IMG/VR virus record: IMGVR_UViG_3300036766_002285 | Strand: one strand, 5' to 3' | Length of the DNA: 30,978 nucleotides | Origin: an uncultured virus (IMG/VR IMGVR_UViG_3300036766_002285) | Lineage: Duplodnaviria > Heunggongvirae > Uroviricota > Caudoviricetes | Part shown: positions 1 to 30,978 of the stretch, piece after piece | Numbering within the stretch: position 1 is the first letter of the stretch | How the letters are laid out: each line of letters begins with the position of its first letter | The notes under the pieces: model-generated | Seen by the model: the letters and a program-made list of their open reading frames with translations, nothing else | Database searches by the model: none | Told to the model about the DNA's origin: nothing | Translations under genes and position numbers: made by a program

Positions 1-1054
1 TATTAATTCTATTTTCAATAAGAGTTTGTAGTCTCGCACTGTTATGCTTAATAATATCTAATGCTTTTTTAACACCAGGTCTAGCATCACTCTTAAGATC
101 GTCTTCTAAGATCTCAAGATACCCCATAATTGCAGATAGAGGTTGGCGTAGTTCGTGACTAATATTAGCAATTTCTTTATTCTTGATAGTGTTAGCGACT
201 TCAAGTTTTTGTGTTAAGGCCGCATTTACGTCCATTTGCTGTTTTTGCTTTATTGTGCCAAGCTGCACCATACTAGCCAAAACTATTGTACGTAAAAACG
301 TGCGTTCAATTTCGCTCCACTCACGTGGTTTATCCAACATGGCGGCCCAAATCAGAAAATCTACTTTGGTTCCCTCTCCTTTAACCGTAGCTAGAAAACT
401 GCGATGATTAGCACATATGACCGGAACGAGTTCTATTTTGGTTAGGTCTCCTTTAGGATTAGTAGTATCCGTTACAGATAAAACACCACCATGTTCATTG
501 TAAACATAAGTAGCCATAGAAAATAATAATGCATCATCCATTTTTAGTTGTATGTCATCAATACGACCGCTAGGCTTTCTCTGCCATTGTTGGCTGCTTT
601 GTGGTGTGTCTGCTTGTGCAAAACTATACAGTACTACAGAATCAACCCCCAGAGCTTTACCAAGACCAGATAGTAAAGTTTCGGTAAGTAAACCGTCATC
701 GGAAGTCGAGCGTATTTTTAGTAGTAATGGTTTGCGTTGTTCATCTAAACGTGCTTGATGGTCACGTTCACTATCAATATAATCTATTAGTTCACTATGG
801 TCTTTACCATCGTTATCAATATTTTCTAAATTAGCAGGTCTGCTTAGAAAATATTTTTTTCGCAAAAATACCACCAGGGTATCTCCTAAAAAAACAAGAG
901 CAAACACAACCAGAAGTGTAGCTTTCATAAATACAGATCGCCCGGCTACGAAACTTACAACGACTGCTCCTAATAATATAAGCCAATTCCGCTGACGGCT
1001 ATTAAATACATTAATCAGTCTCTTTGTCACAACAGGTCTGTCTGCTTGTTTCAT
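1..1054 (-). CDS. GAF-domain sensor histidine kinase-like protein, C-terminus beyond window edge (at least 351 aa)
   Basis: Manual translation (absent from the ORF track because no stop lies in the window). ATG at 1054-1052 with an in-frame TAA shortly upstream. The protein begins MKQADRPVVTKR. Two hydrophobic segments follow (WLILLGAVVVSFVAG; VFMKATLLVVFALVFLGDTLVVFL, then RKK). A GAF-like region runs from LGKALGVDSVVLYSF to KPREWSEIERTFL. After a coiled coil comes the H-box ANISHELRQPLSAIMGYLEIL (His codon 155-157), then ALDIIKHNSARLQTLIENRIN to the edge. Confidence 0.88.
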   Translation of the reverse strand, partial: MKQADRPVVTKRLINVFNSRQRNWLILLGAVVVSFVAGRSVFMKATLLVVFALVFLGDTLVVFLRKKYFLSRPANLENIDNDGKDHSELIDYIDSERDHQARLDEQRKPLLLKIRSTSDDGLLTETLLSGLGKALGVDSVVLYSFAQADTPQSSQQWQRKPSGRIDDIQLKMDDALLFSMATYVYNEHGGVLSVTDTTNPKGDLTKIELVPVICANHRSFLATVKGEGTKVDFLIWAAMLDKPREWSEIERTFLRTIVLASMVQLGTIKQKQQMDVNAALTQKLEVANTIKNKEIANISHELRQPLSAIMGYLEILEDDLKSDARPGVKKALDIIKHNSARLQTLIENRIN

Positions 1055-1111
1055 ATATCTAATAGTGCATATATTTTAGCCTTTGGCATACATTAACAGC
1101 TGGTCTGGGAG

Positions 1112-1117
1112 ATTATA
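1112..1117 (-). promoter_or_regulatory. Possible sigma70-type -10 hexamer upstream of the GAF kinase gene
   Basis: Perfect TATAAT on the minus strand, about 57 nt upstream of the ATG at 1054, in a 175-bp intergenic region. There is no convincing -35 at 17-bp spacing, and the AT-rich background makes a chance match plausible. Confidence 0.3.
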
Positions 1118-1229
1118 GCGTCTAAATGCCTCATTAACACCCACTTTCTTATACTTTTCAAAAAGTGCGGAGACTTAGCTGCTATAAGTATCAATAAACC
1201 AGTTTTAGCGAACACCTGTTTTGGTGACT

Positions 1230-2888: not shown

Positions 2889-2895
2889 CTACAAC

Positions 2896-5800
2896 CTATT
2901 GTTTAGCGTTATGCTGTTTTTGCACTCGAATTGTAGTTAACATACGATTTATAGGTATGTACAAGCCCATAAGCAGCATGAGAAGTATAAGTATTTGTAG
3001 CAATAAGGCATTATGGTTAACAGGCAGGTTATGGGCCGCTATTTCAGCTATAACTGTAGCACTCCCCAAGGTTGTTTTGGTATCCATATATACAGTTCCT
3101 CCACCACGCACCGCATAGAACTGGCAAGTACCTACACCTGTTCCATGGATAACTCCGGTTTCTTCGACAGTACAAATACTTGGGTCACTTACTCCAATAA
3201 AACGAGCACCGTCTTCACTTGATCCGCCTAGAGTCTTTGCCACAAGTACAGAGCCGGTTACTGTTCTAAAGTTTGAGAACTTCAGATCCATAGCGGCTTG
3301 TTCTTTTCTGATACCAAATAATGTAAGGTGACGAGTAAATATCACAACACTCCCGTCTTTTTCAGTAAAGAAGCCGTCTTGTTGTATCCTTGGTAGTTCT
3401 TTGGTTAACAGAGCAGGTATACTATTCCAGCTAATTTCATCAGTAGACCACGCAAGTATTCCACCTGCTGGCAATGCTGGCAAACTGATACTAATAGGCT
3501 CTATAAGCTTTGTTATAGCTACGCCAGTTGCGTCGTGAGCTTTTATGCTTACAGTCAAGAAACCCTGATCGAGAGCAACTTGTTCAGTGCGCTCACTCAT
3601 AGTCATATTCCAAACAGTACCCGCACTGCTGGCCGTGTCGGCGATATTAACTTCAACTACGATTCTCACATCAGTATTGGTGCTTGCTGGTGCTGCTAAT
3701 TCCATTACAGTTGCGTTATCAACGTGGGTAATTGTCACAACACTTTCTGGCGCAATCGTGGTCGTAGTTGTAGGAGGAACAGTAGTTGTAGTTGTTTGAG
3801 GAACAGTTGTTGTTGTACCGCTACCAGGTCCAGGAACTGTAGTAGTTGTGGTCTCAGGTATTGTGGTTGTAGGCTCTGGTACCACTGTTGTAGTTGTAGA
3901 TGGCTGTGCATTAGGTACTTCTATGGTTGTTGTGGTTTCAGGTACAACCGTAGTTGTCGTAGTTGGCTCTTCAGGTGCAACTGTTGTAGTAGTTTCAGGT
4001 GCAACTGTTGTTGTAGTAGTTTCACCCACAACTGTTGTTGTAGTAGTAGTTTCAGGCGCAACTGTAGTTGTCGTTGTAGTAGTAGGTGCAACCGTGGTTG
4101 TAGTTGTGGTTGTAGTAGGGGGTACAACGGGTGTTCCAGAAACTGTAGCAGATGTCACAGGGCTGCCAAAGCCGTTACTTGTGACACGGATTGCAACAGA
4201 GTAGCTAGTGTCATTTGTAAGACCACTAATAACAAAACCTCCAGCAGCCACAAGGCCAGTATCTACCCAGTTGCCACCGTCTAGTTGATATTCAATAAGG
4301 CTAATTGTTGAACCATTTGTTTGCACATTATATATAGTAGCATTTAATACGCCATCTCCAGCCGTAACGCTTACAGATGCAGTTGCTGCATTGGTATCTG
4401 TTGTGAACGATGAAATAGATCCAGTTGTTGTACCACTAACATTAGATGCTACAATTCGGAAATAATATGTAGTACCAGCGCTAAGTCCGGTAAGGGCATA
4501 AGACACAGCGGCTCCAGATTCTCCAGTCACCGGTGACTCACTAGCAGTTACTGTAGTGAATGTGCTTAAATTAGAGGTAGTACCATATCTAAATGATACT
4601 GTAGTTGATGCGCCGTGAGCATTTACAGTGCCAGTAAGTGTTGCAGTAGTAACACCTACATTTGTTGCAGCAGTACCACTAATAGAAGGGGGTTCAACAG
4701 GTATTACAGCAGAGGATACTGCTGACGCTGTACTAGTACCAGCAGCATTAGTTGCACTCACTCTAAAGGTATAGGAAGTACCATTGGTTAGACCAGTCAC
4801 CGTAGCGGATATTGATGCTGAAGTACCGTCAGCAAATGTGTGCCAAGACCCGTCATTGTATTCCACCAAATAATCAGTGATTACAGATCCGCCATTGAAA
4901 GATGGTGCACTCCAGCTTAGAGACACCGAAGTGTCCCCAGGTGTCCCAACAACGCTGGTTGGTGCATCTGGAATTGTAAATGGTGTTACAGAAGCCGAAA
5001 CACTAGAGTAGTTGCCCGCCCCAGCAGCATTAGTTGCACTCACTCGGAAAGTGTAAGCAGTACCGTTCGTAAGTCCAGTAACTGTAGCAGAAGTTGAAGT
5101 AGCAACCCCATCAGTGAAAGTTATATAGTTTGTACCATCTGTAGATGATTGTATTACATAGTCAGTGATTGCGGATCCACCAGTAGATGCCGAAGCTGAC
5201 CATGTTAGAGAAACTTGGGCATCACCAGGAGTGCCAACAACACTAGTTGGCGCACTTGGTGCCGCTATCGGAGTCACTGATGCGGATACGACAGACGCTA
5301 CACTAGTTCCAGCTACGTTTATAGCACTCACTCTAAAGGTATATGAAGTACCGTTAGTTAAGCCGGTAACAGTTGCACTTGTTGATGTTGAAGTACCATC
5401 AGCAAATGTGTGCCAAGTTCCATCATTGTATTCTACTAGGTAATCAGTAATGACAGCACCACCATTGCTTGCTGGAGCACTCCATGTTAGGGATACTAAA
5501 GAGGCTCCCGAAGTTCCAACTACATTTGTTGGTGCAGAAGCAACTGTAGCGGGCGTTACTGCATCAGATACCAATGAAACTATACCAGTACCCACAGCAT
5601 TAGTTGCACTCACACGGAAGGTATATGAAGTACCATTGGTTAGGCCAGTCACCATAGCCGATGTTGAAGTTGAAGTACCATCAACAAATACTATCCAGTC
5701 GGTTCCGTTCAAAGATGACTCTACCAAGTAGTCAGTAATGGCAGCACCACCATTACTTGCTGGCGCTGACCATGTTAGTGACACTAAGGTATTGCCTGAA

Positions 5801-8800
5801 GTGCCAACAACACTAGTTGGAGCGCCCGGCACAGTTTTTGGTATTACTGCAGCAGACGCAGTTGAGACCGCACCAGTACCTGCAGCATTTATTGCACTCA
5901 CTCTAAAGGTATATGATGTACCATTGGTTAGACCAGTCACCGTAGCTGAAGCTGAGGTAGATACGCCGTCTGTAAATGTTGCCCATGAAATACCATCATT
6001 AAATTCAACTAAGTAATCAGTAATGACAGCTCCACCATTTGATCCCGGTGCTGTCCATGTTAGAGATACTAATCCAGCTCCCGACGTTCCAGTAACAGAA
6101 GTTGGTGCGGAAGCAACTGTTCTTGGAATTACTGCAGCAGATACACTTGATGTAACACCAGTACCCGCAACGTTTGTCGCACTCACTCTAAAGGTATATG
6201 AAGTACCGTTAGTAAGTCCGGTCACTGTAGCTGCAGCTGTTGTTGAAGTACCATCAGCAAACACTATCCAATCCGTTCCATTCAAAGATGACTCTACAAC
6301 ATAATCAGTAATTGCTGACCCACCATTGTTAGCTGGAGCACTCCATGTTAGAGATACTTGTGTGTTATCTGGAGTTCCAACAACTGTTGTTGGTGCATTA
6401 GGTACTGTACGTGGTGTTACAGCAGACGATCCTGTTGATGAAGTCCCAGTACCTGCAATGTTTGTCGCACTCACTCTAAATGTGTAAGCAGTACCATTGG
6501 TTAGACCAGTTACTGTAGTTGAAGCTGAAGTTGAAACACCATCTGTAAATGTTGCCCACGATATACCGTCATTAAATTCTATCTGGTAATCAGTAATAGC
6601 AGACCCGCCATTACTTGCTGGAGCTGACCATGTTAGAGATGCTTGAGTATTGCCTGGAGTTCCAGACACAGCTGTTGGTGCATTTGGTGTTCCTACGGGC
6701 GTTACTGCATTAGATACACTTGAAGCACCACCAGTTCCTATAGCATTGGTTGCACCCACTCTAAAGGTATATGAAGTACCGTTTGTTAGACCAGTTACAG
6801 TTGCACTAGCAGTTGTTGAGGTACCATCAGCAAATGTTGCCCACGATATACCGTCATTAAATTCTATCTGGTAATCAGTAATAGCAGACCCGCCATTACT
6901 TGCTGGAGCTGACCATGTTAGAGACGCTTGAGTATTGCCTGGAGTTCCAGCAACAGAAGTTGGTGCACCAGGCACAGCAGCCGGTATAACTGCAGTAGAC
7001 ACTGCTGACACAGTTCCAGTACCTGCAATGTTTGTTGCACTCACACGGAAGGTATATGACGTACCATTCGTTAGACCAGTAACTGTAGCTGAAGTTGAGG
7101 TAGACACGCCGTCTGTAAATGTTGCCCATGAAATACCATCATTAAATTCAACTAGGTAATCAGTGATAGCAGATCCACCGTTAGATCCTGGAGCTGACCA
7201 TGTTAGAGAAACTTGTGAAGCACCTGGAGTACCTACAACGTTTGTTGGAGCACTTGGTGTAGTACGTGGAATTACAGCTGCTGACGCGCTTGATGTTGCT
7301 CCAGTACCAGCAGCATTAGTTGCGCTCACTCTAAAGGTATATGAAGTACCGTTTGTTAGACCAGTTACTGTTGCTGATGTTGATGTTGAAACTCCATCAC
7401 TAAATGTTGCAAAGCCTCCGCCGTCATTAAATTCAACTAGGTAATCAGTAATTGCAGACCCACCATTTGATCCAGGTGCTGACCATGTTAGAGAAACTTG
7501 TGTATTACCAGGAGTTCCTACCACGCTTGTTGGTGCACCCGGTGCTGTAGCAGGTGTTACAGCACTTGAAGCATTAGAATAGTTTCCAGCACCAGCAGCA
7601 TTTACTGCACTTACTCTAAAGGTATATGAAGTACCGTTAGTCAAACCAGTCACTGTAGCTGAAGTTGATGCTGAAGTACCGTCAGCAAAAGTAGTCCAGT
7701 TTGTTGCATCTGGAGAAGATTGTATTACATAATCAGTTATTGCAGACCCACCGTTATTAGCCGGAGCTGACCAGCTTAGAGACACTTGGGTGTTTCCTGG
7801 AGTACCAGTAACATTAGTTGGTACGCTAGGTACTGTTCGTGGGATAACTGCTGCTGATACCGCCGACACTGTACCAGTACCAGCAACGTTTATTGCGCTC
7901 ACTCTAAATGTATATGAAGTGCCGTTTGTTAGACCAGTCACTGAAGCCGATGCAGCCGATGAAACCCCATCAGTAAACGTAGCCCAGCTATTTCCGTCGT
8001 TAAATTCAACCAAATAATCAGTAATTGCAGATCCACCGTTGCTTGCTGGAGCACTCCATGTCAGAGATACTAAAGCAGCACCAGGAGTTCCTACCACGTT
8101 TGTTGGCGCACTTGGAGTATTTCTTGGGATTATGCTAGTAGACACGCTTGATGCAACACCAGTACCGGCAGCATTTATAGCACTCACACGGAACGTGTAA
8201 GCGGTACCGTTAGTTAGACCTGTTACTGTGGTCGACGCTGTAGCTGATACGCCATCTGTGAATGTTGCCCATGATATACCATCGTTGAATTCTACCAAAT
8301 AGTCAGTAATTGTGGCTCCGCCGTTACTTGCTGGAGCGCTCCACGTTAGAGATACTTGAGTGTTACCAGGAGTTCCAACAACAGATGTTGGTGCACCAGG
8401 TACAGCTGTAGGAATTACAGCTGCTGAGACAGCGGACACAACACCAGTACCGGCAGCATTAGTTGCACTCACACGGAATGTATATGAAGTACCATTTGTT
8501 AAGCCAGTCACTGTAGCACTTGTGGACGCTGATACACCATCTGTAAATGTTGCAAATCCTCCACCATCGTTGAACTCAACTAAGTAGTCAGTTATTGCAG
8601 ATCCACCAGTTGAAGCGGGTGCACTCCATGTTAGAGAAACTTGTGTGTCACCAGGAGTTCCAACAACAGATGTTGGTGCGCCCGGTACAGTTCTTGGTGT
8701 TACTGCAGCTGATACAACAGATGTTGCACCAGTCCCAGCAGCATTGCTTGCACTTACCCTAAATGTGTAAGCAGTACCATTCGTAAGGCCAGTTACCGTA

Positions 8801-11800
8801 GCTGATGCTGTTGTTGAAGTTCCATCAGCAAATACAATCCAGTTAGTATCATCTAGTGAAGACTCAATTATATAGTCAGTAATTGCAGAACCACCAGTTG
8901 AAGCTGGAGCAGACCATGTTAGAGAAACTTGGGTGTTACCTGGAGTACCAGCAACAGAAGTTGGTGCGCCAGGCACTGTACGTGGAATTACTGCAGCTGA
9001 TATTACAGACACTGTTCCAGTTCCAGCTGAGTTTATAGCACTCACTCTAAATGTGTATGAAGTGCCATTAGTTAAGCCGGTCACTGTAGCTGATGCTACT
9101 GCTGAAACACCATCAGTGAACGTTGCCCACGACACGCCATCATTATATTCAACTAAATAATCAGTGATAGCAGCTCCACCATTGTTTGCTGGAGCACTCC
9201 ATGTTAGAGATACTTGTGAAGCCCCAGGTGTACCAGAAACCGCTGTTGGAGCATCTGGAGTCGTAGCAGGAGTTACTGCACTAGATGCACTAGAATAGTT
9301 TCCAGCTCCAACAGCATTAGTTGCACTTACACGGAAAGTGTAAGCAGTGCCATTAACTAAACCAGTAACTGTAGCAGACGTTGCAGTAGATACTCCATCA
9401 GTAAAGGTTGTATAGTTTGTACCATCCGTAGATGACTGTATGGTGTAATCAGTTATTGCAGATCCACCGTTGCTTGCTGGAGCAGACCATGTTAGAGAAA
9501 CTTGGGTGTTACCAGAAGTTCCAACAACAGATGTTGGTGCACTTGGAGAAGTACGTGGTATCACACCAGCAGATACTGACGATGCTACACCGGTACCCGC
9601 TACGTTGGTAGCACTTACACGGAATGTATATGAAGTACCATTCGTAAGTCCAGTAACTGTAGCAGATGTTGAAGTAGATACACCGTCACTAAATGTTGCA
9701 AAACCTCCACCGTCATTAAATTCAACTAGGTAGTCAGTAATTGCAGATCCACCATTTGAAGCAGGTGCTGACCATGTTAGAGATACTTGTGAAGGGCCTG
9801 GAGTACCAGCAACAGATGTTGGAGCTCCTGGTACTGTACGTGGTGTTACTGCAGCTGACACAGTTGATAGTGCACCCGTTCCAGCAGCATTAGTTGCACT
9901 CACTCTAAATGTGTAAGCAGTACCGTTCGTAAGTCCAGTAATTGTTGTTGAAGCAGATGTTGAAGTACCATCAGCAAATGTTGCAAAACCTCCACCATCG
10001 TTAAATTCAACTAAGTAATCAGTAATAGCTGAACCACCAGTTGAGCCAGGCGCTGACCATGTTAGAGAAACTTGGGTGTCGCCAGGAGTTCCAGCAACAG
10101 ATGTTGGAGCACCTGGTACTGTACGTGGAATTACTGCAGCTGATACGCTTGACAATGCTCCAGTACCAGCAGCATTAATTGCACTCACACGGAATGTATA
10201 TGAAGTACCGTTTGTAAGTCCAGTAACTGTTGTTGATGCTGAAGTTGAAGTACCATCAGCAAATGTTGCAAAACCTCCACCGTCATTAAATTCAACTAGG
10301 TAGTCAGTTATAGCAGATCCACCAGTTGAAGCAGGCGCTGACCATGTTAGAGAAACCGAAGTGTTACCAGGAGTTCCAGCAACTGACGTTGGAGCACCCG
10401 GAACTGTACGTGGTGTTACTGCTGAAGATACAACAGATGTTGCACCAGTTCCAGCAGCATTACTTGTACTCACTCTAAAGGTGTATGCAGTACCATTAGT
10501 TAAACCAGTAACTGTAGCTGACGCTGAAGTTGAAGTACCATCAGCAAACACAATCCAGTTAGTGTCATCCAAAGAAGTCTCAATTACATAGTCAGTAATA
10601 GCAGACCCCCCATTACTTGCAGGAGCTGACCATGTTAATGACACTTGAGTGTTACCTGAAGTACCAGCAACAGATGTTGGAGCACCCGGTACTGTACGTG
10701 GGATAACTGCAGCGGATACAGCAGATACTGTACCAGTTCCAGCTGAGTTTATTGCGCTCACTCTAAAGGTATAAACTGTACCATTTGTTAAACCTGTGAC
10801 AGTTGCACTAGCTGAAGTTGAAGTACCATCAGCAAACACGATCCAGTTGGTGTCATCTAATGAAGATTCTACTACATAGTCAGTTATTGCAGATCCACCA
10901 GTATCTGCAGGCGCACTCCATGTTAGAGAAACTTGGGTGTTACCTGGAGTACCAACAACCGAAGTTGGAGCATCTGCAACAGCAGCAGGAGTTACTGAGC
11001 TAGAGACAGCAGACGCCACTCCAGTACCTGCAGCATTAGTTGCACTTACACGGAAAGTGTAAGGAGTACCGTTTGTTAGACCAGTAACTGTAGTTGATGT
11101 TGAAGTAGCTACTCCATCTGTGAAAGTTGCCCACGACACACCATTATTAAATTCTACTAAATAATCAGTTATAGCAGATCCACCAGTTGACGCTGGCGCT
11201 GACCATGTTAGAGCTACTGTAGTGTTTCCAGGAGTTCCAGCTACTGACGTTGGTGCGCCCGGTACTGTACGTGGGATAACTGCACTAGATGTACTCGACG
11301 GTGTTCCTGTACCAGCTACGTTGGTAGCACTTACACGGAAAGTGTAAGATGTACCGTTAGTTAGTCCAGTTACAGTAGCAGATGTTGAAGTAGATACTCC
11401 GTCAGTGAATGTCGCAAAACCTCCACCATCATTAAATTCTACCAAGTAGTCAGTGATTGCAGACCCACCTGTTGAAGATGGTGCACTCCATGTTAGAGAG
11501 ACCGATGCGTTTCCTAAAGTTCCAGACACGCTAGTTGGTGCTCCCGGTACTGTTCTTGGAGTTACGGCTGATGATGCAGTAGATACTGCTCCAGTACCAG
11601 CAGCATTGCTTGCACTTACTCTAAATGTGTAGGCAGTACCATTTGTTAGACCAGTAACTGTTGCACTAGCTGAAGGCGAAGTACCATCGCTAAATGTTGT
11701 CCAGTTAGTACCATTGATAGAATGTTCAATTACATAGTCAGTAATTGCTGATCCGCCATTTGATGCCGGAGCTGACCAGGTTAGAGAAACTTGTGAAGCA

Positions 11801-17800: not shown

Positions 17801-20800
17801 TGAGTGTTACCTGGAGTACCAACAACAGATGTTGGTGCATTAGGTACTGTTCTTGGAGTCACGCTAGCTGATACAACAGATGTAGTTCCAGCACCTGCAA
17901 CGTTACTTGCACTTACTCTAAATGTGTAAGCAGTACCGTTTGTTAAACCAGTTACCGTAGCAGATGCTGAAGTTGAAGTTCCGTCAGCAAACACGATCCA
18001 GTTGGTATCATCTAGTGAAGATTCGATTATATAGTCAGTAATTGCAGATCCACCATTATTTGCTGGAGCACTCCATGTTAGAGATACTGTAGTGTTGCCA
18101 GGAGTACCGGCCACTGATGTTGGTGCATTAGGTACCGTACGTGGTGTAACTGCTGCAGACACAGTTGACAATGCACCAGTACCTGCAGCATTGATTGCAC
18201 TCACACGGAACGTGTGGCTTGTGCCATTCACTAAACCAGTAACTGTAGCAGATGCTGAAGTAGACACTCCATCAGTGAAGGTTGCAAAACCTCCACCGTC
18301 ATTGAATTCAACTAAGTAATCAGTTATTGCTGAACCACCATTGACTGCTGGAGCTGACCATGTTAGAGAAACTTGAGTGTTACCTGGAGTTCCTACAACA
18401 GACGTAGGAGCATCAGGCACTGTACGTGGCGTAACTGCAGCCGATACTGTCGAAGCCGAACCAGTACCAGCAGCATTGATTGCACTTACTCGGAACGTGT
18501 GACTGGTACCATTCACTAAACCTGTAACTGTAGCAGATGTTGAAGTAGATACTCCATCAGTGAAGGTTGCAAAACCTCCACCATCATTAAATTCTACCAA
18601 GTAGTCAGTTATTGCTGATCCACCATTGTTTGCTGGAGCACTCCAGGTTAGAGAAACTGATGTGTTACCAGGAGTACCTACAACTGATGTTGGTGCGTTA
18701 GGTACTGTACGTGGTGTAACTGCTGCAGACACGGTTGATGTTGCCCCAGTTCCAGCAACGTTGCTTGCACTCACTCTAAATGTATATGCAGTACCGTTCG
18801 TAAGTCCGGTTACTGTTGTTGATGTTGAAGTTGAAGTTCCGTCAGCAAATACAATCCAGTTAGTATCATCTAGTGAAGATTCAATTACATAGTCAGTGAT
18901 TGCAGATCCACCATTGTTTGCTGGAGCTGACCAGGTTAGAGAAACTTGGGTGTTACCAGGAGTACCGGCCACAGAGGTCGGTGCATTAGGTACCGTACGT
19001 GGTGTTACTGCAGCTGACACTGTTGATGCAGCACCAGTACCTGCGGCATTAATTGCACTTACTCTAAATGTGTGGCTTGTGCCATTCACTAAACCAGTAA
19101 CTGTAGCAGATGTTGAAGTAGATACTCCATCAGTGAAGGTTGCAAAACCTCCACCATCATTAAATTCTACCAAGTAATCAGTGATTGCACTCCCACCATT
19201 GTTTGCTGGAGCAGACCATGTTAGAGAAACTTGGGTGTTACCAGGAGTACCGGCCACTGATGTTGGTGCATTAGGTACAGTACGCGGTGTAACTGCTGAA
19301 GACACGGTTGATGTTGCCCCAGTTCCAGCAACGTTGGCTGCACTCACTCTAAATGTGTAAGCAGTACCATTCGTAAGTCCGGTTACTGTTGTTGATGCCG
19401 ATGTTGAAGTACCGTCGCTGAATGTTATCCAGTCAGTACCATTAATTGAATGCTCAATAATATAATCTGTAACAGCAGAACCACCATTTGATCCTGGTGC
19501 GCTCCATGTTAGAGATGCCTGTGTGTTACCAGGAGTACCAACTACTGATGTTGGAGCCCCCGGTACTACTGCTGGAGTCACGCTAGCTGATACAGAAGAC
19601 GCAACACCAGTACCCGCTACGTTTACTGCACTCACTCTAAATGTATAAGCAGTACCGTTTGTAAGTCCAGTTACAGTTGTTGAAGCTGTAGTAGAAGTTC
19701 CATCAGCAAATACTATCCAGTTGGTGTCATCTAGCGAAGATTCAATTACATAATCAGTAATCGCACTTCCACCAGTTGAAGCCGGTGCTGACCATGTTAG
19801 AGAAACTTGAGAGTTTCCTAAAGCTCCTACAACAGATGTTGGGGCACCTGGTACTGTACGTGGAATTACGCTAGCTGACACTGTCGATGGAACACCAGTT
19901 CCAGTAGCATTGGTTGCGCTTACTCTAAATGTGTATGAAGTACCATTCGTTAGACCAGTTACAGTTGTCGAAGCTGTAGTTGAAGTACCATCAACAAAAG
20001 TGTGCCAAGTGCCATCATTGTATTCTATTTCATAATCAGTAATTGCAGAGCCACCAATATTAGAAGGTGCTGACCATGTTAGAGAAACTTGGGTATTACC
20101 TGGAGTACTAACCACTGATGTTGGAGCACCAGGCACCGCTACAGGCGTTACTGAAGAAGATGTAGCTGACACTGCACCAGTTCCAGCGACGTTTATTGCA
20201 CTTACTCTAAATGTGTAAGCAGTACCGTTCGTAAGTCCAGTTACTGTTGTTGAAGCTGATGTTGAAACCCCATCAGTAAATGTGTGCCATGTTCCGTCAT
20301 TATATTCAACTAAGTAGTCAGTAATTGCTGATCCGCCATTTGATGCCGGAGCTGTCCATGTTAAATACACTAAAGCGTTGCCCGGATCCCCCACAACACT
20401 TGTTGGTGCTCCCGGAACTGTACGTGGAGTAACTGAACTAGAGACTGTTGATGTTGCACCAGTACCTGCAGCATTAGACGCACTTACTCTAAATGTGTAA
20501 GCGGTACCGTTCGTAAGTCCAGTTACAGTTGTTGACGCTGTAGTAGAAACTCCATCAGCAAATACGATCCAGTTAGTGTCGTCCAATGAAGATTCAATTA
20601 CGTAGTCCGTGATTGCAGACCCACCTGTTGAAGCGGGCGCTGACCAGGTTAGAGAAACTTGGGTGTTACCAGCTGTTCCAGCAACAGAGGTTGGTGCTCC
20701 AGGTACTGTACGTGGTGTCACACTAGCAGATACAGTTGACAATGCTCCAGTACCTGCAGCATTGCTTGCACTCACTCTAAAGGTATAAGCAGTACCATTT

Positions 20801-23800
20801 GTTAGACCAGTTACAGTTGTTGATGCTGTAGCAGAAGTACCATCAGCAAACACGATCCAGTTAGTATCGTCTAGTGAAGATTCAATTACATAATCAGTAA
20901 TTGCACTTCCACCAGTTGAAGCCGGTGCTGACCATGTTAGTGCTACTTGTGAAGGACCTGGCGTTCCAGCAACAGATGTTGGGGCACCTGGCACTGTACG
21001 TGGGGTAACCGATGCTGACACTGTGGAACTTGCACCAGTACCTGCGGCATTAATTGCACTTACTCTAAATGTGTGACTTGTACCATTCACTAAGCCTGTT
21101 ACTGTAGCAGATGTTGAAGTAGATACTCCATCAGTGAAGGTTGCAAAACCTCCACCATCATTAAATTCAACTAGGTAGTCTGTGATGGCTGAACCACCAT
21201 TAACTGCTGGAGCACTCCATGTTAGAGAAACTTGGGTGTTACCAGGAGTTCCTACAACAGAAGTTGGTGCGTTAGGTACTGTACGTGGTGTAACGGCTGA
21301 AGACACAACAGATGTTGCCCCAGTACCTGCAACGTTACTTGCACTCACACGGAAAGTGTAAGCAGTACCGTTAGTTAGACCTGTCACTGTTGCACTTGCA
21401 GATGTTGAAGTACCATCAGCAAACACAATCCAGTTAGTATCATCTAGTGAAGATTCGATTACATAATCAGTGATTGCTGAACCACCATTAACTGCTGGCG
21501 CTGCCCATGTTAGAGAAACTTGAGTGTTACCAGGAGTACCTACAACTGATGTTGGTGCGTTAGGCACTGTACGTGGTGTAACTGCAGCTGATACCGCGGA
21601 TGGAGTTGTATCAACACCATTAATACTATTCATTTGGAAATAATAAGCTGTACCATTTGTTAAACCGGTTTTAGTATAGGACACATCAGATGCGGTTCCC
21701 ATAGTGTTGAAAGTACATCCAACGGACATATCGACATCCGTGCAAGTAACTAACTGTAATGAAGTTCTAGGAGCAGCTGCAGAAGTAGATCCGTTAGTCC
21801 ATGTTAGCGATATTTGTGTATTACCTGGAGTTCCGGCCACACTTGTAGCAGCACTAGGGGCCGCAATAGGAGTTTTTGAAGCAGATGTTGCCGACATAGC
21901 TCCAGTTCCAGCGGCGTTAATTGCACTTACACGGAACGTGTATGAAGTACCATTAGTTAAACCTGTTACAGTTGTACTAGTTGCTGTAGATGTACCATCA
22001 GCAAAAGTATTCCATGTTCCATTATTATACTCTACCAAGTAGTCAGTGATTGCAGACCCGCCATTAGATCCTGGAGCACTCCATGTTAGAGAAATTTGTG
22101 AAGTTCCTACAGTACCCACAACAGACGTCGGAGCATCAGGCACTGTACGTGGCGTAACTGCAGCCGATACTGTCGAAGCCGAACCAGTACCAGCAGCATT
22201 GATTGCGCTCACTCTAAATGTGTGACTTGTACCATTCACTAAACCAGTAACTGTAGCAGATGTTGATGTAGATACACCATCAGTAAAGGTTGCAAAACCT
22301 CCACCATCATTAAATTCAACTAGGTAGTCTGTAATTGCTGATCCGCCATTTGATGCCGGAGCTGACCATGTTAGAGAAACTTGGGTGTTACCAGGAGTAC
22401 CAACTACTGATGTTGGTGCGTTAGGTACTGTACGTGGTGTAACGGCTGAAGACACAACAGATGTTGCCCCAGTACCTGCAACGTTACTTGCACTCACACG
22501 GAAAGTGTAAGCAGTACCGTTAGTTAGACCTGTCACTGTTGCACTTGCAGATGTTGAAGTACCATCAGCAAACACAATCCAGTTAGTATCATCTAGTGAA
22601 GATTCGATTACATAATCAGTGATTGCTGAACCACCATTAACTGCTGGCGCTGCCCATGTTAGAGAAACTTGAGTGTTACCAGGAGTACCTACAACTGATG
22701 TTGGTGCGTTAGGCACTGTACGTGGTGTAACTGCAGCAGACACAGTTGACAATGCACCAGTACCTGCAGCATTGATTGCACTTACTCTAAATGTGTGACT
22801 TGTACCATTCACTAGACCAGTAACTGTAGCAGAAGTTGAAGTTGATACACCATCAGTGAATGTTGCAAATCCTCCACCATCATTAAATTCAACTAAGTAA
22901 TCAGTTATTGCAGATCCACCTGTTGACGCTGGAGCCGACCATGTTAGAGATACCTGGGTGTTACCTGGAGTACCGGCAACTGCTGTTGGAGCACCCGGTA
23001 CTGTACGAGGAGTTACGCCAGCTGACACTGTTGATACAGCACCAGTACCTACAGCATTGATTGCACTTACTCGGAACGTGTGACTTGTACCGTTTACTAA
23101 ACCTGTAACAGTTGCAGATGTTGAAGTAGATACTCCGTCAGTGAATGTTGCAAATCCTCCACCATCATTGAATTCAACCAGGTAATCTGTGATTGCACTT
23201 CCACCATTAACTGCTGGAGCTGACCATGTTAAAGAAACTTGAGTGTTACCAGGAGTACCTACAACTGCTGTTGGTGCGTTAGGCACTGTACGTGGTGTAA
23301 CTGCTGCAGACACGGTTGATGTTGTTCCAGTACCTGCAGCATTACTTGCACTCACTCTAAAGGTATAAGCAGTACCATTAGTTAAACCAGTAACTGTTGT
23401 TGAAGCAGATGTAGAAGTACCATCAGCAAACACAACCCAGTTAGTATCGTCTAGTGAAGATTCAATTACATAATCAGTGATGGCAGATCCACCAGTTGAA
23501 GCTGGTGCTGACCATGTTAGAGAAACTTGTGTATCGCCAAAAGTGCCAGCAACAGAAGTAGGTGCTCCAGGTACTGTGCGTGGAGTTACTCCAGCTGACA
23601 CTGTCGATGGAACACCAGTTCCAGTAGCATTAGATGCACTCACTCTAAATGTATAAGCAGTACCGTTAGTTAGGCCAGTAACTGTTGTTGAAGCAGATGT
23701 TGAAGTACCATCAGCAAACACAATCCAGTTGGTATCATCTAGTGAAGATTCGATTACATAGTCTGTGATTGTAGATCCACCAGTTGAAGCAGGTGCTGAC

Positions 23801-26800
23801 CAGCTTAGAGAAACCTGGGTGTTACCAGGAGTACCAACAACAGATGTTGGAGCACCCGGTACTGTGCGTGGTGTAACTGCTGAAGATACGCTGGATGCAA
23901 CACCAGTTCCAGCTATGTTAATAGCACTCACTCTAAAGGTGTATGCAGTACCGTTAGTTAAACCAGTAACTGTTGTTGATGCTGATGTTGAAACTCCATC
24001 TGTAAATGTGGCCCAACTATTTCCATCATTAAATTCTACCAAATAGTCTGTAATTGCAGATCCACCAGTAACTGCCGGAGCTGACCAGCTTAGAGAAACT
24101 TGTGTATTACCAGCTGTTCCTATAACTGATGTTGGTGCACCCGGTACTGTTCTTGGTGTAACTGCAGCTGATACTGTTGAAGCAGCTCCAGTACCCGCAG
24201 CATTAATTGCACTCACTCTAAATGTGTGGCTAGTACCATTCACTAGACCAGTTACTGTAGCAGATGTTGAAGTTGAAACTCCATCGCTAAATGTAGCCCA
24301 ACTTCCGCCGTCATTAAATTCTACCAAGTAATCTGTAATAGCACTTCCACCAGTTGAAGCAGGTGCTGACCAGGTTAGAGAAACCTGGGTATCGCCAGGA
24401 GTACCAGCAACAGAAGTTGGTGCACCAGGTACTGTTCGTGGTGTTACTGCTGAAGATACTGTAGACACAGTACCAGTACCCGCAGCATTAATTGCACTCA
24501 CTCTAAATGTGTGGCTAGTACCATTCACTAGACCAGTTACTGTAGCAGATGTTGAAGTTGAAACTCCATCGCTAAATGTAGCCCAACTTCCGCCGTCATT
24601 AAATTCTACCAAGTAATCTGTAATAGCACTTCCACCAGTTGAAGCAGGTGCTGACCAGGTTAGAGAAACCTGAGTATCGCCAGGAGTACCAGCAACAGAA
24701 GTTGGTGCACCAGGTACTGTACGAGGAACAACCGCCCCAGATACTGTTGATGCTGCACCAGTTCCTATAGCATTGATTGCACTTACTCTAAAAGTATGGC
24801 TTGTACCATTTACTAAACCAGTTACTGTTGCACTAGCAGAAGTTGACACACCATCGCTAAATGTGGCCCAACCTCCACCATCATTAAATTCTACCAAGTA
24901 ATCAGTAATTGCTGATCCACCATTGCTTGCAGGTGCTGACCATGTTAGAGAAACTTGTGTATCACCAGGAGTACCAGCAACAGATGTTGGTGCACCTGGT
25001 ACTGTACGAGGAACAACCGCCCCAGATACTGTTGATGCTGCACCAGTTCCTATAGCATTGATTGCACTTACTCTAAAAGTATGGCTTGTACCATTTACTA
25101 AACCAGTTACTGTTGCACTAGCAGAAGTTGACACACCATCACTAAATGTTGCCCAACCACCACCATCGTTGAATTCAACTAGATAGTCAGTAATTGCAGA
25201 TCCACCTGTTGAAGCAGGTGCTGACCATGTTAGTGATACTTGGGTGTTACCAGGAGTTCCAGCAACTGAAGTTGGTGCACCAGGTACTGTACGTGGTGTA
25301 ATGCCGGCACTGGTTGCTGAGTTAGTAGAACCATAACTATTGATACTGGTTACTTCAAACCAGTAGGTAGTACCATTGGTAAGACCAGTAATTGAGTGAG
25401 CAGTATCACCTGCTGCAAATGATGTAGTTGTAACGCAGCCAACTTGCATAGCAGAGTTGGTACAATAATCTATAGAAATACTGGTTCGTGGTTTAGCAGA
25501 TGTAGTAGAACCGTTTGTCCATGTAAGATCTACTTGAGTATCTGCACCAGTTCCAGCAACTGTTGTTGCAGCATTAGGTTGAGAAATTGGTGTGACCGCA
25601 GATGAAGTGGCTGTTGCTCCAGCTCCAACTGCGTTAACAGCACTTACTCTAAAAGTGTATGCAGTTCCATTAGCTAAACCAGTTACAGTTGCTGATGCTG
25701 ACGTGGAAACTCCGTCAGTGAAAGTTGCCCAATCTACACCATCATTGAACTCTACCAAGTAATCGGTAATTGCAGACCCACCATTAGATCCTGGAGCTGA
25801 CCATGTTAGAGAAACTTGTGAAGTACCAGCTGTACCAACAACAGAGGTTGGAGCATTAGGTACTGTTCTTGGGGTAACGGCTGAAGATACAACAGAGGTA
25901 GTTCCAGTACCCGCAACGTTAGTTGCACTTACTCTAAATGTGTAAGCCGTACCGTTGGTTAGGCCAGTAACTGTTGTTGAAGCAGATGTTGAAGTACCAT
26001 CAGCAAATACGATCCAGTTGGTATCATCTAATGAAGATTCAATCACATAATCAGTAATTGCACTTCCACCAGTTGAGGCCGGTGCTGACCATGTTAGAGA
26101 AACTTGGGTGTTGCCAGGAGTTCCAGCAACAGAAGTTGGTGCACCCGGTACGGTGCGTGGCGTCACTGCTGAAGATACTGTAGATGTTGCCCCAGTACCT
26201 GCTGCATTACTTGCACTCACTCTAAATGTATAGGCAGTACCGTTAGTTAGACCTGTCACTGTTGCACTTGCAGATGTTGAAGTACCATCAGCAAACACGA
26301 TCCAGTTAGTATCATCCAAAGAGGACTCAACTATATAATCTGTAATTGCACTTCCACCATTAACTGCTGGAGCTGACCAGGTTAGAGAAACTTGGGTATT
26401 ACCAGGAGTACCGGCCACTGATGTTGGAGCATTAGGCACTGTACGTGGTGTTACCGATGCTGACACAGTTGATGTAGCACCAGTACCAGCAGCATTGATT
26501 GCACTTACTCTAAATGTGTAAGGTGTACCATTAGTTAGACCAGTGACTGTTATTGATGCTGTAGATGAAGTTCCATCAGCAAACACGATCCAGTTAGTAT
26601 CATCTAATGAAGATTCAATTATATAATCAGTAATCGCACTTCCACCAGTTGAAGCAGGTGCTGACCATGTTAGAGAAACTTGGGTATTACCAGGAGTACC
26701 GGCCACTGATGTTGGAGCATTAGGCACTGTACGTGGTGTTACCGATGCTGACACAGTTGATGTAGCACCAGTACCAGCAGCATTGGTTGCACTCACTCTA

Positions 26801-29800
26801 AATGTGTAAGGTGTACCATTAGTTAGACCAGTGACTGTTGTTGATGCTGTAGATGAAGTTCCATCAGCAAACACGATCCAGTTAGTATCATCTAATGAAG
26901 ATTCAATTATATAATCAGTAATCGCACTTCCACCAGTTGAAGCAGGTGCTGACCATGTTAGAGAAACTTGTGTGTTACCAGGAGTACCGGCAACTGCTGT
27001 TGGTGCCCCCGGTACTGTACGAGGAGTTACGCCAGCTGACACTGTTGATACAGCACCAGTACCTACAGCATTGGTTGCACTCACTCTAAATGTGTAAGCA
27101 GTACCATTCGTAAGTCCAGTTACAGTTGTTGATGCTGATGTTGAAGTACCATCAGCAAACACGACCCAGTTGGTATCGTCTAGTGAAGATTCAATTACAT
27201 AATCAGTGATAGCGGATCCACCATTGCTTGCTGGAGCTGACCAGGTTAGAGAAACTTGAGTATTACCTGCAGTACCCACAACTGTTGTTGGTGCACCCGG
27301 TACTGTTAAGGTTGTAAATGATAATATCGAGCCATTTGTAGTTCCATTACTGTTAACTGCCACTATTCTAAAATAATATAATGTTCCAGGATCAAGTCCT
27401 ATTAAAGCCTTAGATACGACCGAAGGTGACCCACCAGTGGCCGGCGAACCAGTAGCGGCCACACTTGTCGCTCCAGTTAAGTCTGATGCTGTACCATATT
27501 CAAATGTTACTGTAGCATCTGCATAGTTAGCATTAACAGTACCAGATAATGACACTGTAGTAGTTCCTATTGAACTAGCTGCATTTGTTACTATTACTGA
27601 GGTTGTTGATGGAATTACCCCGGCAGAAGTTGCAGACGCTGTTGACCCGCCAGCATTAATACTAATTACTTGAAAATAATATGTAGTACCGTTTGTAAGT
27701 CCAGTTTTAGTATAAGAAGTATCTGTGGATGTACCCATTGTCACAGTTGTACATCCAGTTGTCATACCAGCATTTGTACAAGTTTTTACATCCAAACTTA
27801 CTCTAGGAGTAGGGCCAGTAACAGCTCCGTTTGTCCAAGTTAATGGTACTTGAGTATTTCCTGAAGTTCCGACCACGCTGGTTGCAGCATTAGGAACATT
27901 AACTGGAGTAACACTAGCACTTGTAGCAGACGTAGTAGCACCAACACCATTAGTGCTGATAACTTGGAACCAGTAAGCAGTACCAGCAGTTAAACCTGTT
28001 TTAGTATAAGAAGTGTCATTTGCAGTACCCATTGCAGTAGTAGAACATCCTGTAGTCATACCGGAATTTGTACAAGTTTTTACATCTAAACTAGTTCTAG
28101 GTGCAGAACTAGAAGTTGCACCATTCGTCCAGGTTAGTGCTACAGATGTACTGCTAGCAACAGTTCCCACAACCGAAGTTGCGGCCGCCGGTGAGTTAAT
28201 AGGAACAAATGATAAAATAGACCCCAGAGTAGTATCTACACCATTTATTGCAACTACTCTATAATAGTAAGTAGTACCTGTTGTTAAACCAGTTAATGCT
28301 TTAGTTACAGCCGTATTAGAAAATCCTGTAACTGGCGATTCTGCTGCGGCCACACTGGTAGCTCCAGTCAAGTCAGATGCTGTACCATAATCAAAAGTTA
28401 CAGTATTAGAAGTACCTACCGCATTTACAGTACCATTTAAAGTTACCGTAGTTGAACCAAGTGAAGTTGCTGCATTGGTTGTTGCTGTAGCTGAGTTGTC
28501 TACAGCAATGCTTGTAGCAGAAACTGCTGATAAGTTTCCTCCAGCATCTGTCGTGTATGCAACATAAGTTCCAGCTAACAAACCTGTTGATGCTACGCCA
28601 GTATTTGTATTAGCTGTCGAAACTGTAACTGTGTTCCACAAGTTTCCAGCAGCTCCAGTAATACTCGCTAGATTGGTAACAGATACAGTATTTTTTACTA
28701 TATAACCTGTACCTACTTCAGTGGATTGAATAATACATTGCTGACCACCGTTACACGGTGATGATCCTATAATAGATGCTGTTGGAGCAGTAGTATCAAC
28801 CAAATGACTGCCAGAAGCAGCCACCGCCGAATGGGTGATAACAGCTGCAGCTGAGTTAGCATTAATAGTACCACCATTAAGCTCTAAAGTGCCAGCAGTA
28901 ATTGCTATACCATCAGTATCAGTGTCTCCACTCACTACAGTATAATTAAATACTAGCGAAGTAGATCCAGTCCCTGAAGCATAGGTCATATATTTACTAG
29001 ATAAACCTAAAATAGGTATACGAGGAGTATTTGTTACTGTTACAGCTGCACTAAATACTACTGTAGCACTAATTACATCTCCTGCAACATAGGTATTATC
29101 AGCCCCAGCAGAAGATGTATATGATATAGAGGTCACTCTAGGCACAAAAGTATAACTCGCTGTTTTTGTTACAACTCCTCCAGTACTAGTTAGAACAACA
29201 TCTATCGCCGCCCCAACAGCTTTAGCCGGAGTATTAACATTAACGTGAGTTGAATCTGTATTAACAATTGATGTCCCGGCTGTACCTCCAAAGGTTACTC
29301 CAGTAGTACCTTGCAAGTTAGTACCGGTGATAGTAACAGTAGTACCTCCAGCGTCAGATCCAGACGCCGGAGCTACAGTTGTAATTGTTGGTGCAGCTAC
29401 GAATTCAAATCCGTTAAATGTTGCTACAGCCTGACCATTTTTTGTAACTATAACAGCTGAAGCACCAGCTGCTACTGATGGCGTTTGTACTGTAAATGAA
29501 GTGGAGTTGACTGCAGTAATAGAAGTACCAGATGTGCCACCAAATGTTACCGCCGTAGGAACAGGACTCATATTAACACCAGTAATTGTAATAACTGTTC
29601 CAGCAGTTGTCGCTTTAGCGCTAGGAAATCCTGCAGCGTTAAGTACTGAAGTTAAGGGAGCTGGTGTAATAGTAGGTGGAGATAGCGCAGATATTGTTAC
29701 CGCATTACTTGATGTAACTTTCGTCATACCAGCTACAGGAGTGGAGCTGTTTGTAGGATTAGTTATCCCAGAAATTGTTACTGATGCTGCAGCTCCTTGA

Positions 29801-30978: not shown

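Follow-up and report, generated by a model that had tools for sequence, protein, structure and literature searches.

A candidate self-cleaving giant adhesin encoded with a histidine kinase in a conserved two-component operon

GAIN_B-like autoproteolytic domains have recently been described in microbial surface proteins under the name MAIN (Microbial Autoproteolysis INducing), with B. subtilis YfkN as an example (Brogan & Rudner, bioRxiv 10.64898/2026.05.12.724683, 13 May 2026). According to the main text of that preprint, MAIN domains carry an HX(S/T) motif and cleave in vitro as well as in vivo, leaving fragments that stay associated (YfkN is cut between HF and S1346), and the usual protein layout runs from a signal peptide through adhesion or enzyme domains to MAIN and then to a sortase, SLH or cell-wall anchor. 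Its Discussion ties no signalling to the stub that remains after cleavage, and leaves open whether the tethered peptide has a physiological effect. Here we describe a giant adhesin whose gene lies beside two genes for histidine kinases (HK1 and HK2) in a 30,978-nucleotide stretch of DNA from an uncultured virus record (IMG/VR IMGVR_UViG_3300036766_002285), the whole of which we call the window. The adhesin has a juxtamembrane domain of the MAIN kind, and the locus is a concrete and conserved candidate for the preprint's question of stub signalling.

The window protein shares with YfkN, as the latter is presented in the preprint's main text, a GAIN_B-like sandwich that has no helical subdomain and an HX(S/T) turn before the last strand. 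With MAIN proteins in general it shares the order signal peptide, adhesion region, MAIN and anchor, as well as a large ectodomain of FN3, Ig and TIG domains. There are also differences from the proteins treated there: (i) the anchor is a transmembrane (TM) helix following an extra Ig domain, rather than a sortase, SLH or cell-wall anchor; (ii) the motif is HLT, rather than the HFS of YfkN; (iii) the family is probably actinobacterial, with relatives named as Ilumatobacteraceae or Actinomycetota metagenome-assembled genomes (MAGs), whereas the preprint's emphasis is on Bacillota and the string 'Actino' is absent from its main text; and (iv) the adhesin is encoded within a two-component operon. 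The terms 'two-component', 'signal transduction' and 'operon' are absent from the main text of the preprint; its supplementary tables could list such proteins.

Other described systems resemble the locus in part. An earlier study united the ZU5, GPS and Nup98 autopeptidases, pointed to related ZU5 domains among the large surface proteins of bacteria and suggested that they serve to release toxins and enzymes; the passages concerned make no mention of kinase coupling (Zhang et al. 2012; PMC3482391). Unlike members of the ZU5 superfamily such as PIDD, UNC5, ankyrin and the FIIND of NLRP1/CARD8, the window domain is extracellular and has no Pfam ZU5 match. The RsgI SEAL anti-sigma factors resemble what we propose for the window protein: they are bacterial transmembrane signalling proteins with an extracytoplasmic domain that cleaves itself and keeps its fragments associated, and force on a ligand-binding end is their proposed trigger (bioRxiv 10.1101/2023.06.27.546760; PMC10328401). 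As described in that work, they differ in having a SEA-like fold and another cleavage chemistry, and their output runs by way of intramembrane proteolysis and a sigma factor, all in one polypeptide chain, whereas for the window we propose a neighbouring histidine kinase. Unlike adhesion G-protein-coupled receptors (GPCRs) and polycystin-1, the window protein has no GAIN_A, no GPS cysteines and no Pfam GPS or GAIN match; it continues into an Ig domain, one TM helix and a tail of 16 amino acids (aa) instead of 7 or 11 TM helices, and the protein through which it would signal, a histidine kinase, is encoded separately. Membrane-anchored extracytoplasmic modulators that are encoded with their kinase are familiar as accessory proteins, namely NlpE for CpxA (in surface sensing), YycH/YycI for WalK and LiaF for LiaS. 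To our knowledge none of NlpE, YycH/YycI and LiaF is a giant adhesin, and none has an autoproteolytic domain of the GAIN/ZU5 type. No published link between GAIN, MAIN or ZU5 domains and a bacterial histidine kinase was found in the literature searched. The initial annotation of this DNA had put forward the combination of self-cleaving adhesin and kinases as possibly new; within the literature searched this holds for the coupling, and the 2026 description of the self-cleaving domain kind counts against it for the domain.

The three genes of the window are co-oriented on its minus strand, as seen from the open reading frame (ORF) listing and translation (Table 1). The TAA stop codon of the giant gene (2896-2898) and the ATG of HK1 (2888) are 7 bp apart, and 175 bp (1055-1229) separate HK1 from HK2. 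From its N-terminus the giant protein consists of a signal-peptide-like segment, about 80 FN3 domains, a Thr-rich stalk, the juxtamembrane domain, an Ig domain, a TM helix and a tail. The juxtamembrane domain is about 145 aa long and has the C-terminal end ...VVIFTRHLTLFGIRK. HLT occurs once in the 9,360-aa protein, at H9217-L9218-T9219 (context FTRHLTLFGIRK), and the fragment from T9219 to the end comprises 142 aa. What the initial annotation had reported for this region is borne out: the three co-oriented genes with the 7-bp adhesin-kinase spacing, the juxtamembrane HL↓TxF motif (TRHL↓TLFG, the arrow marking the predicted cut) and a 142-aa segment composed of TLFGIRK, Ig and TM. The tail, which had been given as 17 aa, is shorter by one residue when the TM helix is placed by hydropathy at 9320-9344.

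The HL↓T motif belongs to a large family. A search with the C-terminal 286 aa against 1.84 billion representatives returned 260 relatives at E<=1e-3, including 111 at <=1e-10; of the 260, 150 listed relatives were re-aligned to the query, giving 189 rows, 153 of which cover the motif. The family pattern is S-x-D-G-x-x-W ... L-P ... D-G-Y-[YF] ... D-G ... T-x-H-[LA]-[TS]-x-F-G, with column conservation of 99% for W110, 92% for T141, 84% for H143, 88% for T/S145, 91% for F147 and 87% for G148. With so many relatives, and with motif columns that rank near the top in conservation, the motif is far beyond chance. Of the 153 rows, 123 carry H-x-[ST] (HLT 78, HAT 28, HLS 13, HFS 2, HFT 1, HMT 1), and in the other 30 the motif is degenerate or cut. 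Domain databases do not cover the family. Pfam gave no match to the juxtamembrane domain in the query (at E<=0.1 and at E<=5) or in 25 relatives, and when 51 relatives were searched at E<=5, no ZU5, GPS, GAIN or FIIND model was among the 25 most frequent of the 67 families found. NCBIfam likewise had no match to the domain. A sequence search of the PDB with the single protein found only Afp7 (E 0.97), one with the module profile found matches limited to the Big_2 part, and a single-protein scan of reference-genome contigs found no relative.

Both ends of the family's proteins vary. Ectodomains include ice-binding-like, BspA LRR, Flg_new, Cadherin-like, FN3 and TIG types, and the C-terminal end may be a TM helix, an OmpA-like domain, another beta domain or an LPxTG-like string, so that the MAIN+Big_2 tandem occurs together with envelope anchors of different kinds. 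LPxTG-like (LLPDTGF, LLPNTGF, GLPQTGLW) or OmpA-like peptidoglycan-binding ends are found in L009, P0066, P0087, P0027 and P0055. For the window protein itself, a sortase anchor was considered and rejected, as the sequence LPVNH, which precedes the TM helix, does not fit LPXTG.

AlphaFold2 models built on a 51-sequence alignment suggest what kind of domain this is. The 286-aa module was modelled with a pLDDT of 91.1 and a pTM of 0.76. Because Foldseek gave only Ig-tandem matches for this whole model, the domain was also folded alone (158 aa; pLDDT 85.7, pTM 0.81). With the domain alone, the GAIN domains of CD97, BAI3 and BAI2 and the ZU5 domains of ankyrin came out on top in Foldseek, at E values of 0.01-0.06, none of them <=1e-3. 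When it was compared with 48,161 chains by VIA-align, the best structural matches were ankyrin ZU5 domains, with the CD97 GAIN domain at rank 4 (8.4). Further matches were UNC5b ZU5 (7.8), CD97 (7.7), the GAIN domains of CELSR1 (7.5) and BAI3 (7.3), Gpr126 (6.7), GPR110 (6.2), GPR56 (5.9), CARD8 FIIND (5.9), GPR97 (5.8), LPHN3 (5.3), NLRP1 FIIND (5.2 and 4.9) and ZO-1 ZU5 (4.7), interspersed with three axonemal chains and with beta-sandwiches from various glycosidases. The 50 structure matches listed include no entry for SEA or SEAL. In a protein-language-model Atlas the nearest named cluster is eukaryotic ZU5, with a score of 0.87 that serves as a lead only.

In both models H143-L144-T145 lies in the tight turn that joins strand 137-143 to strand 146-151, with which the sandwich ends. 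Model residue 144 corresponds to L9218, and it is at this residue that the chains of cleaved GAIN and FIIND receptors end (GPR56 at 382, NLRP1 at 1212); S1213 of NLRP1 is recorded as the first residue of its C-terminal fragment. The domain model is all beta except for one 5-residue helix. The domain is GAIN_B/ZU5-sized rather than a full GAIN domain, because the helical GAIN_A is absent from the model and residues 9075-9232 contain no Cys. The GAIN domain proposed in the initial annotation is accordingly confirmed in part: a GAIN_B/ZU5-type sandwich with HL↓T at the equivalent turn is predicted, and the missing GAIN_A, GPS cysteines and Pfam match speak against the remainder. The predicted fold is also that of ZU5, yet Pfam ZU5 (PF00791) does not match. 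We are highly confident, from the models, that the fold is of the MAIN/GAIN_B type. Since the window protein combines the GAIN_B-like fold, an HX(S/T) before the last strand and the layout signal peptide, adhesion region, MAIN and anchor, we assign the domain by predicted fold, motif and architecture to the kind described in 2026, as a new and unmodelled subfamily of MAIN/GAIN_B/ZU5 domains.

By analogy with these domains, it is quite likely that the adhesin cleaves itself between L and T. An alternative is that the H-L-T turn is purely structural, like that of GAIN or ZU5 domains which stay uncleaved, and the domain a covalent anchor, so that any signal to HK1 would come from force transmitted in the absence of dissociation. 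Ankyrin ZU5 domains are not known to self-cleave, and they are the best structural matches; HAT variants (28 rows) have Ala at P1; and the 30 of 153 rows that have no H-x-S/T include five TM-anchored relatives. The motifs of these five are KTG, RTG, KAG, TTG and RPV, and by sequence the proteins are probably non-cleaving forms. They are P0008, P0013, P0019, P0024 and P0026, and their tails share the end ...ALRTDP. On the other hand, His, Thr/Ser, Phe and Gly are 84-91% conserved across the family, and HX(S/T) was catalytic in the six MAIN domains for which the main text of the preprint reports tests (bioRxiv 10.64898/2026.05.12.724683). We regard a domain that never cleaves as distinctly unlikely in the window protein.

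To follow the genes around the module, a back-translated motif pattern, verified on the window, was scanned over metagenomes. It gave 45 loci, of which 43 have a motif-bearing ORF in greedy ORF calls (L020 and L039 do not); these 43 form 31 clusters at a module identity of at least 90%. In 10 loci, equal to 5 clusters (L002/3/22/25, L014, L015/29/34, L027 and L036), an HK1 orthologue lies directly downstream and co-oriented, and these orthologues are full-length with the sensor domain included (phmmer, E 1e-79 to 1e-127). A TM helix and short tail like those of the window are present in the same five clusters and in the L012/33/43 cluster, and the modules of these six TM-anchored clusters are 35-43% identical to that of the window over 236-281 aa. 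Kinase genes adjoin the adhesin in all six dereplicated MAIN-Ig-TM clusters, with an HK1 orthologue in five and a remnant of HK1 in the sixth, so the kinases are conserved neighbours, as the initial annotation had supposed. The remnant is 46 aa long, is 56.5% identical to HK1 residues 499-544 (L012 3631-3768, L043 3308-3445) and has the gene for an ice-binding-like MAIN adhesin on one side and that for an HK2-like kinase on the other. A 369-aa ORF of L012 in the same interval was considered as a diverged HK1 and rejected, because hhalign found no similarity between it and HK1. A quick IQ-TREE analysis of 31 module rows, which excluded redundant loci as well as L013, L020 and L039, places the window together with the six kinase-linked clusters in a single clade (SH-aLRT 96).

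In this TM-anchored clade the adhesin gene lies inside a two-component operon, because an OmpR-type regulator is encoded upstream of it, and HK1, HK2 and receivers downstream. The adhesin stop and HK1 start codons overlap (ATGA, GTGA, TTGA) in seven of eight loci inspected (L014, L015, L029, L034, L025, L002 and L036); in the eighth, L027, there is a longer adhesin-HK1 overlap or a later HK1 start. We take this arrangement as translational coupling of adhesin and kinase. All five clusters with enough downstream sequence have an HK2 homologue. In the L002 and L014/15 groups, HK1 is followed by an Oxidored_molyb-like protein, an HK2-like kinase of 684-692 aa and two receivers, the receiver-only proteins being 138 and 123 aa long; in L027, it is followed by two receivers and then a GAF-containing HK2. 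An OmpR-type regulator gene is directly upstream and co-oriented in both loci with visible upstream sequence (L025 and L029). The relatives thus have the order OmpR-type regulator, adhesin, HK1, HK2 and two receivers, and the window has adhesin, HK1 and HK2. A scan of window positions 1-3400 for promoters and terminators gave counts equal to chance, and no terminator-like site on the minus strand, and is uninformative.

HK1 consists of a cytoplasmic N-terminal segment, TM1 (59-84), a CHASE3-like sensor (85-224), TM2 (225-257), HAMP, HisKA and HATPase_c. Its Pfam matches are HisKA (9e-13), HATPase_c (9e-21), a weak HAMP (0.0036; 18 bits, cut-off 25) and a weak CHASE3 (0.06; 13.7 bits, cut-off 28), the last two being under the Pfam cut-offs. 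The orthologue in L034 reaches 34.2 bits for CHASE3, over the cut-off of 28, and other orthologues have precomputed PF05227 and PF00672 annotations. The orthologue group is sharply bounded in a protein search, with 14 clusters at 38-42% identity and at least 93% coverage, and the next match at E 1e-54; two of its members are named by their sources as coming from an Ilumatobacteraceae MAG and an Actinomycetota MAG. In an alignment of 21 HK1 orthologues, the extracytoplasmic sensor, at 51% identity, is roughly as well conserved as the ATPase domain (59%), DHp reaches 74%, and an invariant cytoplasmic motif precedes TM1. HK2, as far as it is contained in the window, has two TM helices (23-66), a GAF-like region and HisKA, the last being its sole Pfam match. 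About residues 87-350 are homologous to kinases of 562-699 aa at related loci, and a GAF match (3e-06) was found in the HK2 homologue of L027.

Within the clade it is the ectodomains that differ (FN3+TIG, TIG+MBG_2 or ice-binding-like), while the C-terminal module and HK1 are constant. In 10 TM-anchored modules, the most conserved segment is the strand after the predicted cut (positions 145-156), with 68% all-pairs identity, compared with 53% for the MAIN core, 50% for the Ig domain, 38% for the TM helix and 31% for the tail. Within the helix, the outer half holds a Gln (Q9328 in the window) that 10 of 10 clade members share.

We read the locus as encoding a membrane-anchored, self-cleaving MAIN adhesin whose stub co-senses with HK1, a reading that we give slightly less than even credence. 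According to it, the domain would cleave between L9218 and T9219 by a His-assisted N-O acyl shift, as in GAIN, ZU5 and MAIN domains, and the 9,218-aa ectodomain would be kept non-covalently on a 142-aa stub made up of the beta-strand TLFGIRK, the Ig domain and the TM helix. The stub would be an accessory or co-sensor subunit of HK1, and the likeliest contacts would be through the TM helix, with its invariant Gln, and/or between the Ig domain and the CHASE3-like ectodomain. If the ectodomain came under tension or was lost, the output of HK1 would change and so report surface attachment or shear to a network with HK2, the OmpR-type regulator and the two receiver proteins. The parts of this scheme differ in strength. 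It is likely that the adhesin and HK1 act in one pathway, and possible, if somewhat doubtful, that HK1 senses the stub directly; force-driven dissociation seems an unlikely form for the signal to take. We are similarly sceptical of cis-signalling in the manner of adhesion GPCRs, in which force would strip off the ectodomain and the exposed stub would activate a dedicated CHASE3-type kinase, encoded by the next gene with which the adhesin gene overlaps, and the kinase would feed a network of several kinases and receivers. Candidates for the active element are TLFGIRK as a tethered strand, the Ig domain, and the TM helix through the invariant Gln.

A signalling role of the locus is plausible, and would have several implications. 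Cis-signalling of the kind just described would give the C-terminal fragment of a microbial GAIN-like domain its first part in signalling, and would mean that the logic of an 'adhesion receptor' is older than GPCRs. The locus would encode a dedicated bacterial sensor of adhesion and shear, and the evolution of mechanosensing by adhesion GPCRs would be tied to prokaryotic two-component signalling. Should signalling fail, the proteins would still be a clear new MAIN subfamily, with an HLT motif and a MAIN+Big_2 tandem, probably actinobacterial and as yet with no Pfam model.

A number of observations weigh against stub sensing. Beyond the five relatives with degenerate motifs, an HK1 orthologue is found in none of the 25 other clusters, which are anchored by other C-terminal domains; in 23 of these the genes within four ORFs encode permeases, reductases, glycosyltransferases, sortase and the like, some of the contigs being short. 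With HK1 missing from 25 of 31 clusters, release or anchoring, the function put forward in the preprint, is probably what the domain generally serves. The L012 cluster has an intact HLT adhesin and has lost HK1, which appears to have degraded there while the motif was kept. A seventh TM-bearing module, that of L013, is on a 1.2-kb contig with only 24 bp downstream, too little to be informative; it is outside the six-cluster count and has no BLAST match to the window module. The kinase label changes once on the module tree, and the tree thus indicates that the link arose once and was then inherited, a case of conserved synteny of single origin rather than of convergence. Finally, the operon-encoded regulator could merely control expression of the adhesin.

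The last point leads to the main rival explanation, in which the adhesin is a regulated target. The two-component system would use the CHASE3-like domain to sense an unrelated cue, from the envelope or the environment, and would control transcription of the adhesin operon; the adhesin would be in the operon for co-regulation only, and its MAIN domain would be a release or breakaway joint. It fits with this that the gene directly upstream of the adhesin in L025 and L029 encodes an OmpR-type DNA-binding regulator, that most MAIN-type clusters (25/31) are without HK1, that the L012 lineage retains its adhesin after the decay of HK1, and that the release model, as set out in the main text of the preprint, has no need of signalling. 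It fits less well that a structural gene stands between regulator and kinase with a stop/start overlap in 7/8 loci, that the presence of HK1 coincides exactly with TM anchoring of the module, and that a variable ectodomain is paired with a conserved stub and HK1 sensor, a pattern typical of subunits made together. We consider the regulated-target explanation unlikely on the whole, though it deserves to be taken seriously.

A further possibility is that the adhesin is purely a release device or mechanical fuse, whose MAIN domain would let go of the 9,218-aa ectodomain under load, as has been proposed for MAIN proteins at large, and that HK1 and HK2 are functionally unrelated neighbours kept by descent. 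The single origin of the kinase link would be expected in that case. However, the gene order has been kept, stop/start overlap included, at identities of 35-43% in the module and 36-40% in HK1, and retention of gene order at such divergence is unusual for unrelated genes. We give this possibility little weight.

One more group of sequences bears on stub sensing, and counts with the points against it. In 8 of 20 HK1 orthologue clusters (P0155, P0162, P0164 and P0274-P0278), the kinase carries in-frame IPT/TIG domains on the N-terminal side of its cytoplasmic segment and TM1. These forms have no visible signal peptide and no MAIN-Ig-TM module. The TIG array may be cytoplasmic, by the positive-inside rule, or an untranslated remnant. 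P0275 and P0278 have, in addition, a PhoD_N/FN3-like domain that matches in type those of the giant adhesin, and in P0274 the N-terminal cytoplasmic motif is repeated about five times. P0280 is a 1,959-aa FN3 protein named 'titin' that ends in stalk, MAIN, Ig and TM, and is 41% identical to the window protein over the MAIN domain. P0274 and P0280 are both recorded from a 12,607-bp JGI contig and, judged by this common length and their common source, probably share one contig; if so, the TIG-fused forms do not replace the adhesin.

Table 1. Genes and protein features of the window (positions in the 30,978-nucleotide stretch)
Feature	Position	Strand	Basis
Giant surface protein gene, 9,360 aa	2896..30978 (stop included)	-	ATG at window edge
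HK1, 552 aa	1230..2888	-	ORF, Pfam, hydropathy, orthologue alignment
HK2, 5' part only, 351 aa, runs off window	2..1054	-	Pfam, hydropathy
Signal-peptide-like N-terminus, residues 1-34, MHFKSGFSKLKKILLVFAISAAGVFAVATPALAA	30877..30978	-	Translation; hydropathy peak at residues 9-37
FN3 repeat array, 285-bp unit	4735..27306	-	TRF, repeat spacing, Pfam fn3 in N-terminal sample
Thr/Pro-rich stalk, ~residues 8950-9075	3754..4131	-	Thr runs 8955-9074
MAIN / GAIN_B / ZU5-like beta-sandwich, ~residues 9080-9226	3301..3741	-	
H9217-L9218-T9219, predicted autoproteolysis site (between L and T)	3322..3330	-	Motif and model position
Big_2-like Ig domain, conserved Cys pair C9269, C9285	3034..3300	-	
C-terminal TM helix, residues 9320-9344, Q9328	2947..3021	-	Hydropathy; helix 248-285 in model
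Short basic cytoplasmic tail, 16 aa	2899..2946	-	

Some neighbouring genes of the relatives deserve mention. The Oxidored_molyb-like protein is 184-199 aa long, gives a partial match at E ~1e-9 to 1e-10 and is encoded between HK1 and HK2 in two lineages (L002 4256-4810, L014 3426-4025, L015 2864-3463, L022 7394-7948, L025 7664-8218 and L029 2506-3105); it is absent from the window and from L027. Two of the 25 clusters that have no HK1, L007/L042 and L040, have different neighbours, namely a LuxR-type regulator and a UhpB/NarQ/LiaS-like kinase (L007 4123-6490, L042 1-1473, L040 255-2736). The MAIN-type proteins beside these pairs are not TM-anchored and form a small clade of their own (SH-aLRT 91).

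In the remainder of the giant protein, the signal-peptide-like N-terminus is followed by a region of roughly 1,270 aa made up of mixed beta domains, with Pfam matches to TIG, fn3 and PhoD_N-like domains. Residues 1-1200 (window 27379-30978) include three repeats of about 135 aa with the Cys pairs C100/122, C234/255 and C369/390, after which come two TIG domains and PhoD_N-like FN3 variants. For the FN3 array, TRF reports a period of 285 bp, 78.9 copies and 71% matches, and 81 motifs of the YTFRV type, spaced 94-96 aa apart in the giant protein, correspond to about 80 FN3 repeats. G+C content is 37-38% in the kinase genes (window 1-3000) versus 44-46% in the adhesin gene (3001-27000). Two sequence subtypes, '...IESSLDDTNW...' and '...VEFNDGGGFATF...', alternate in the FN3 array.

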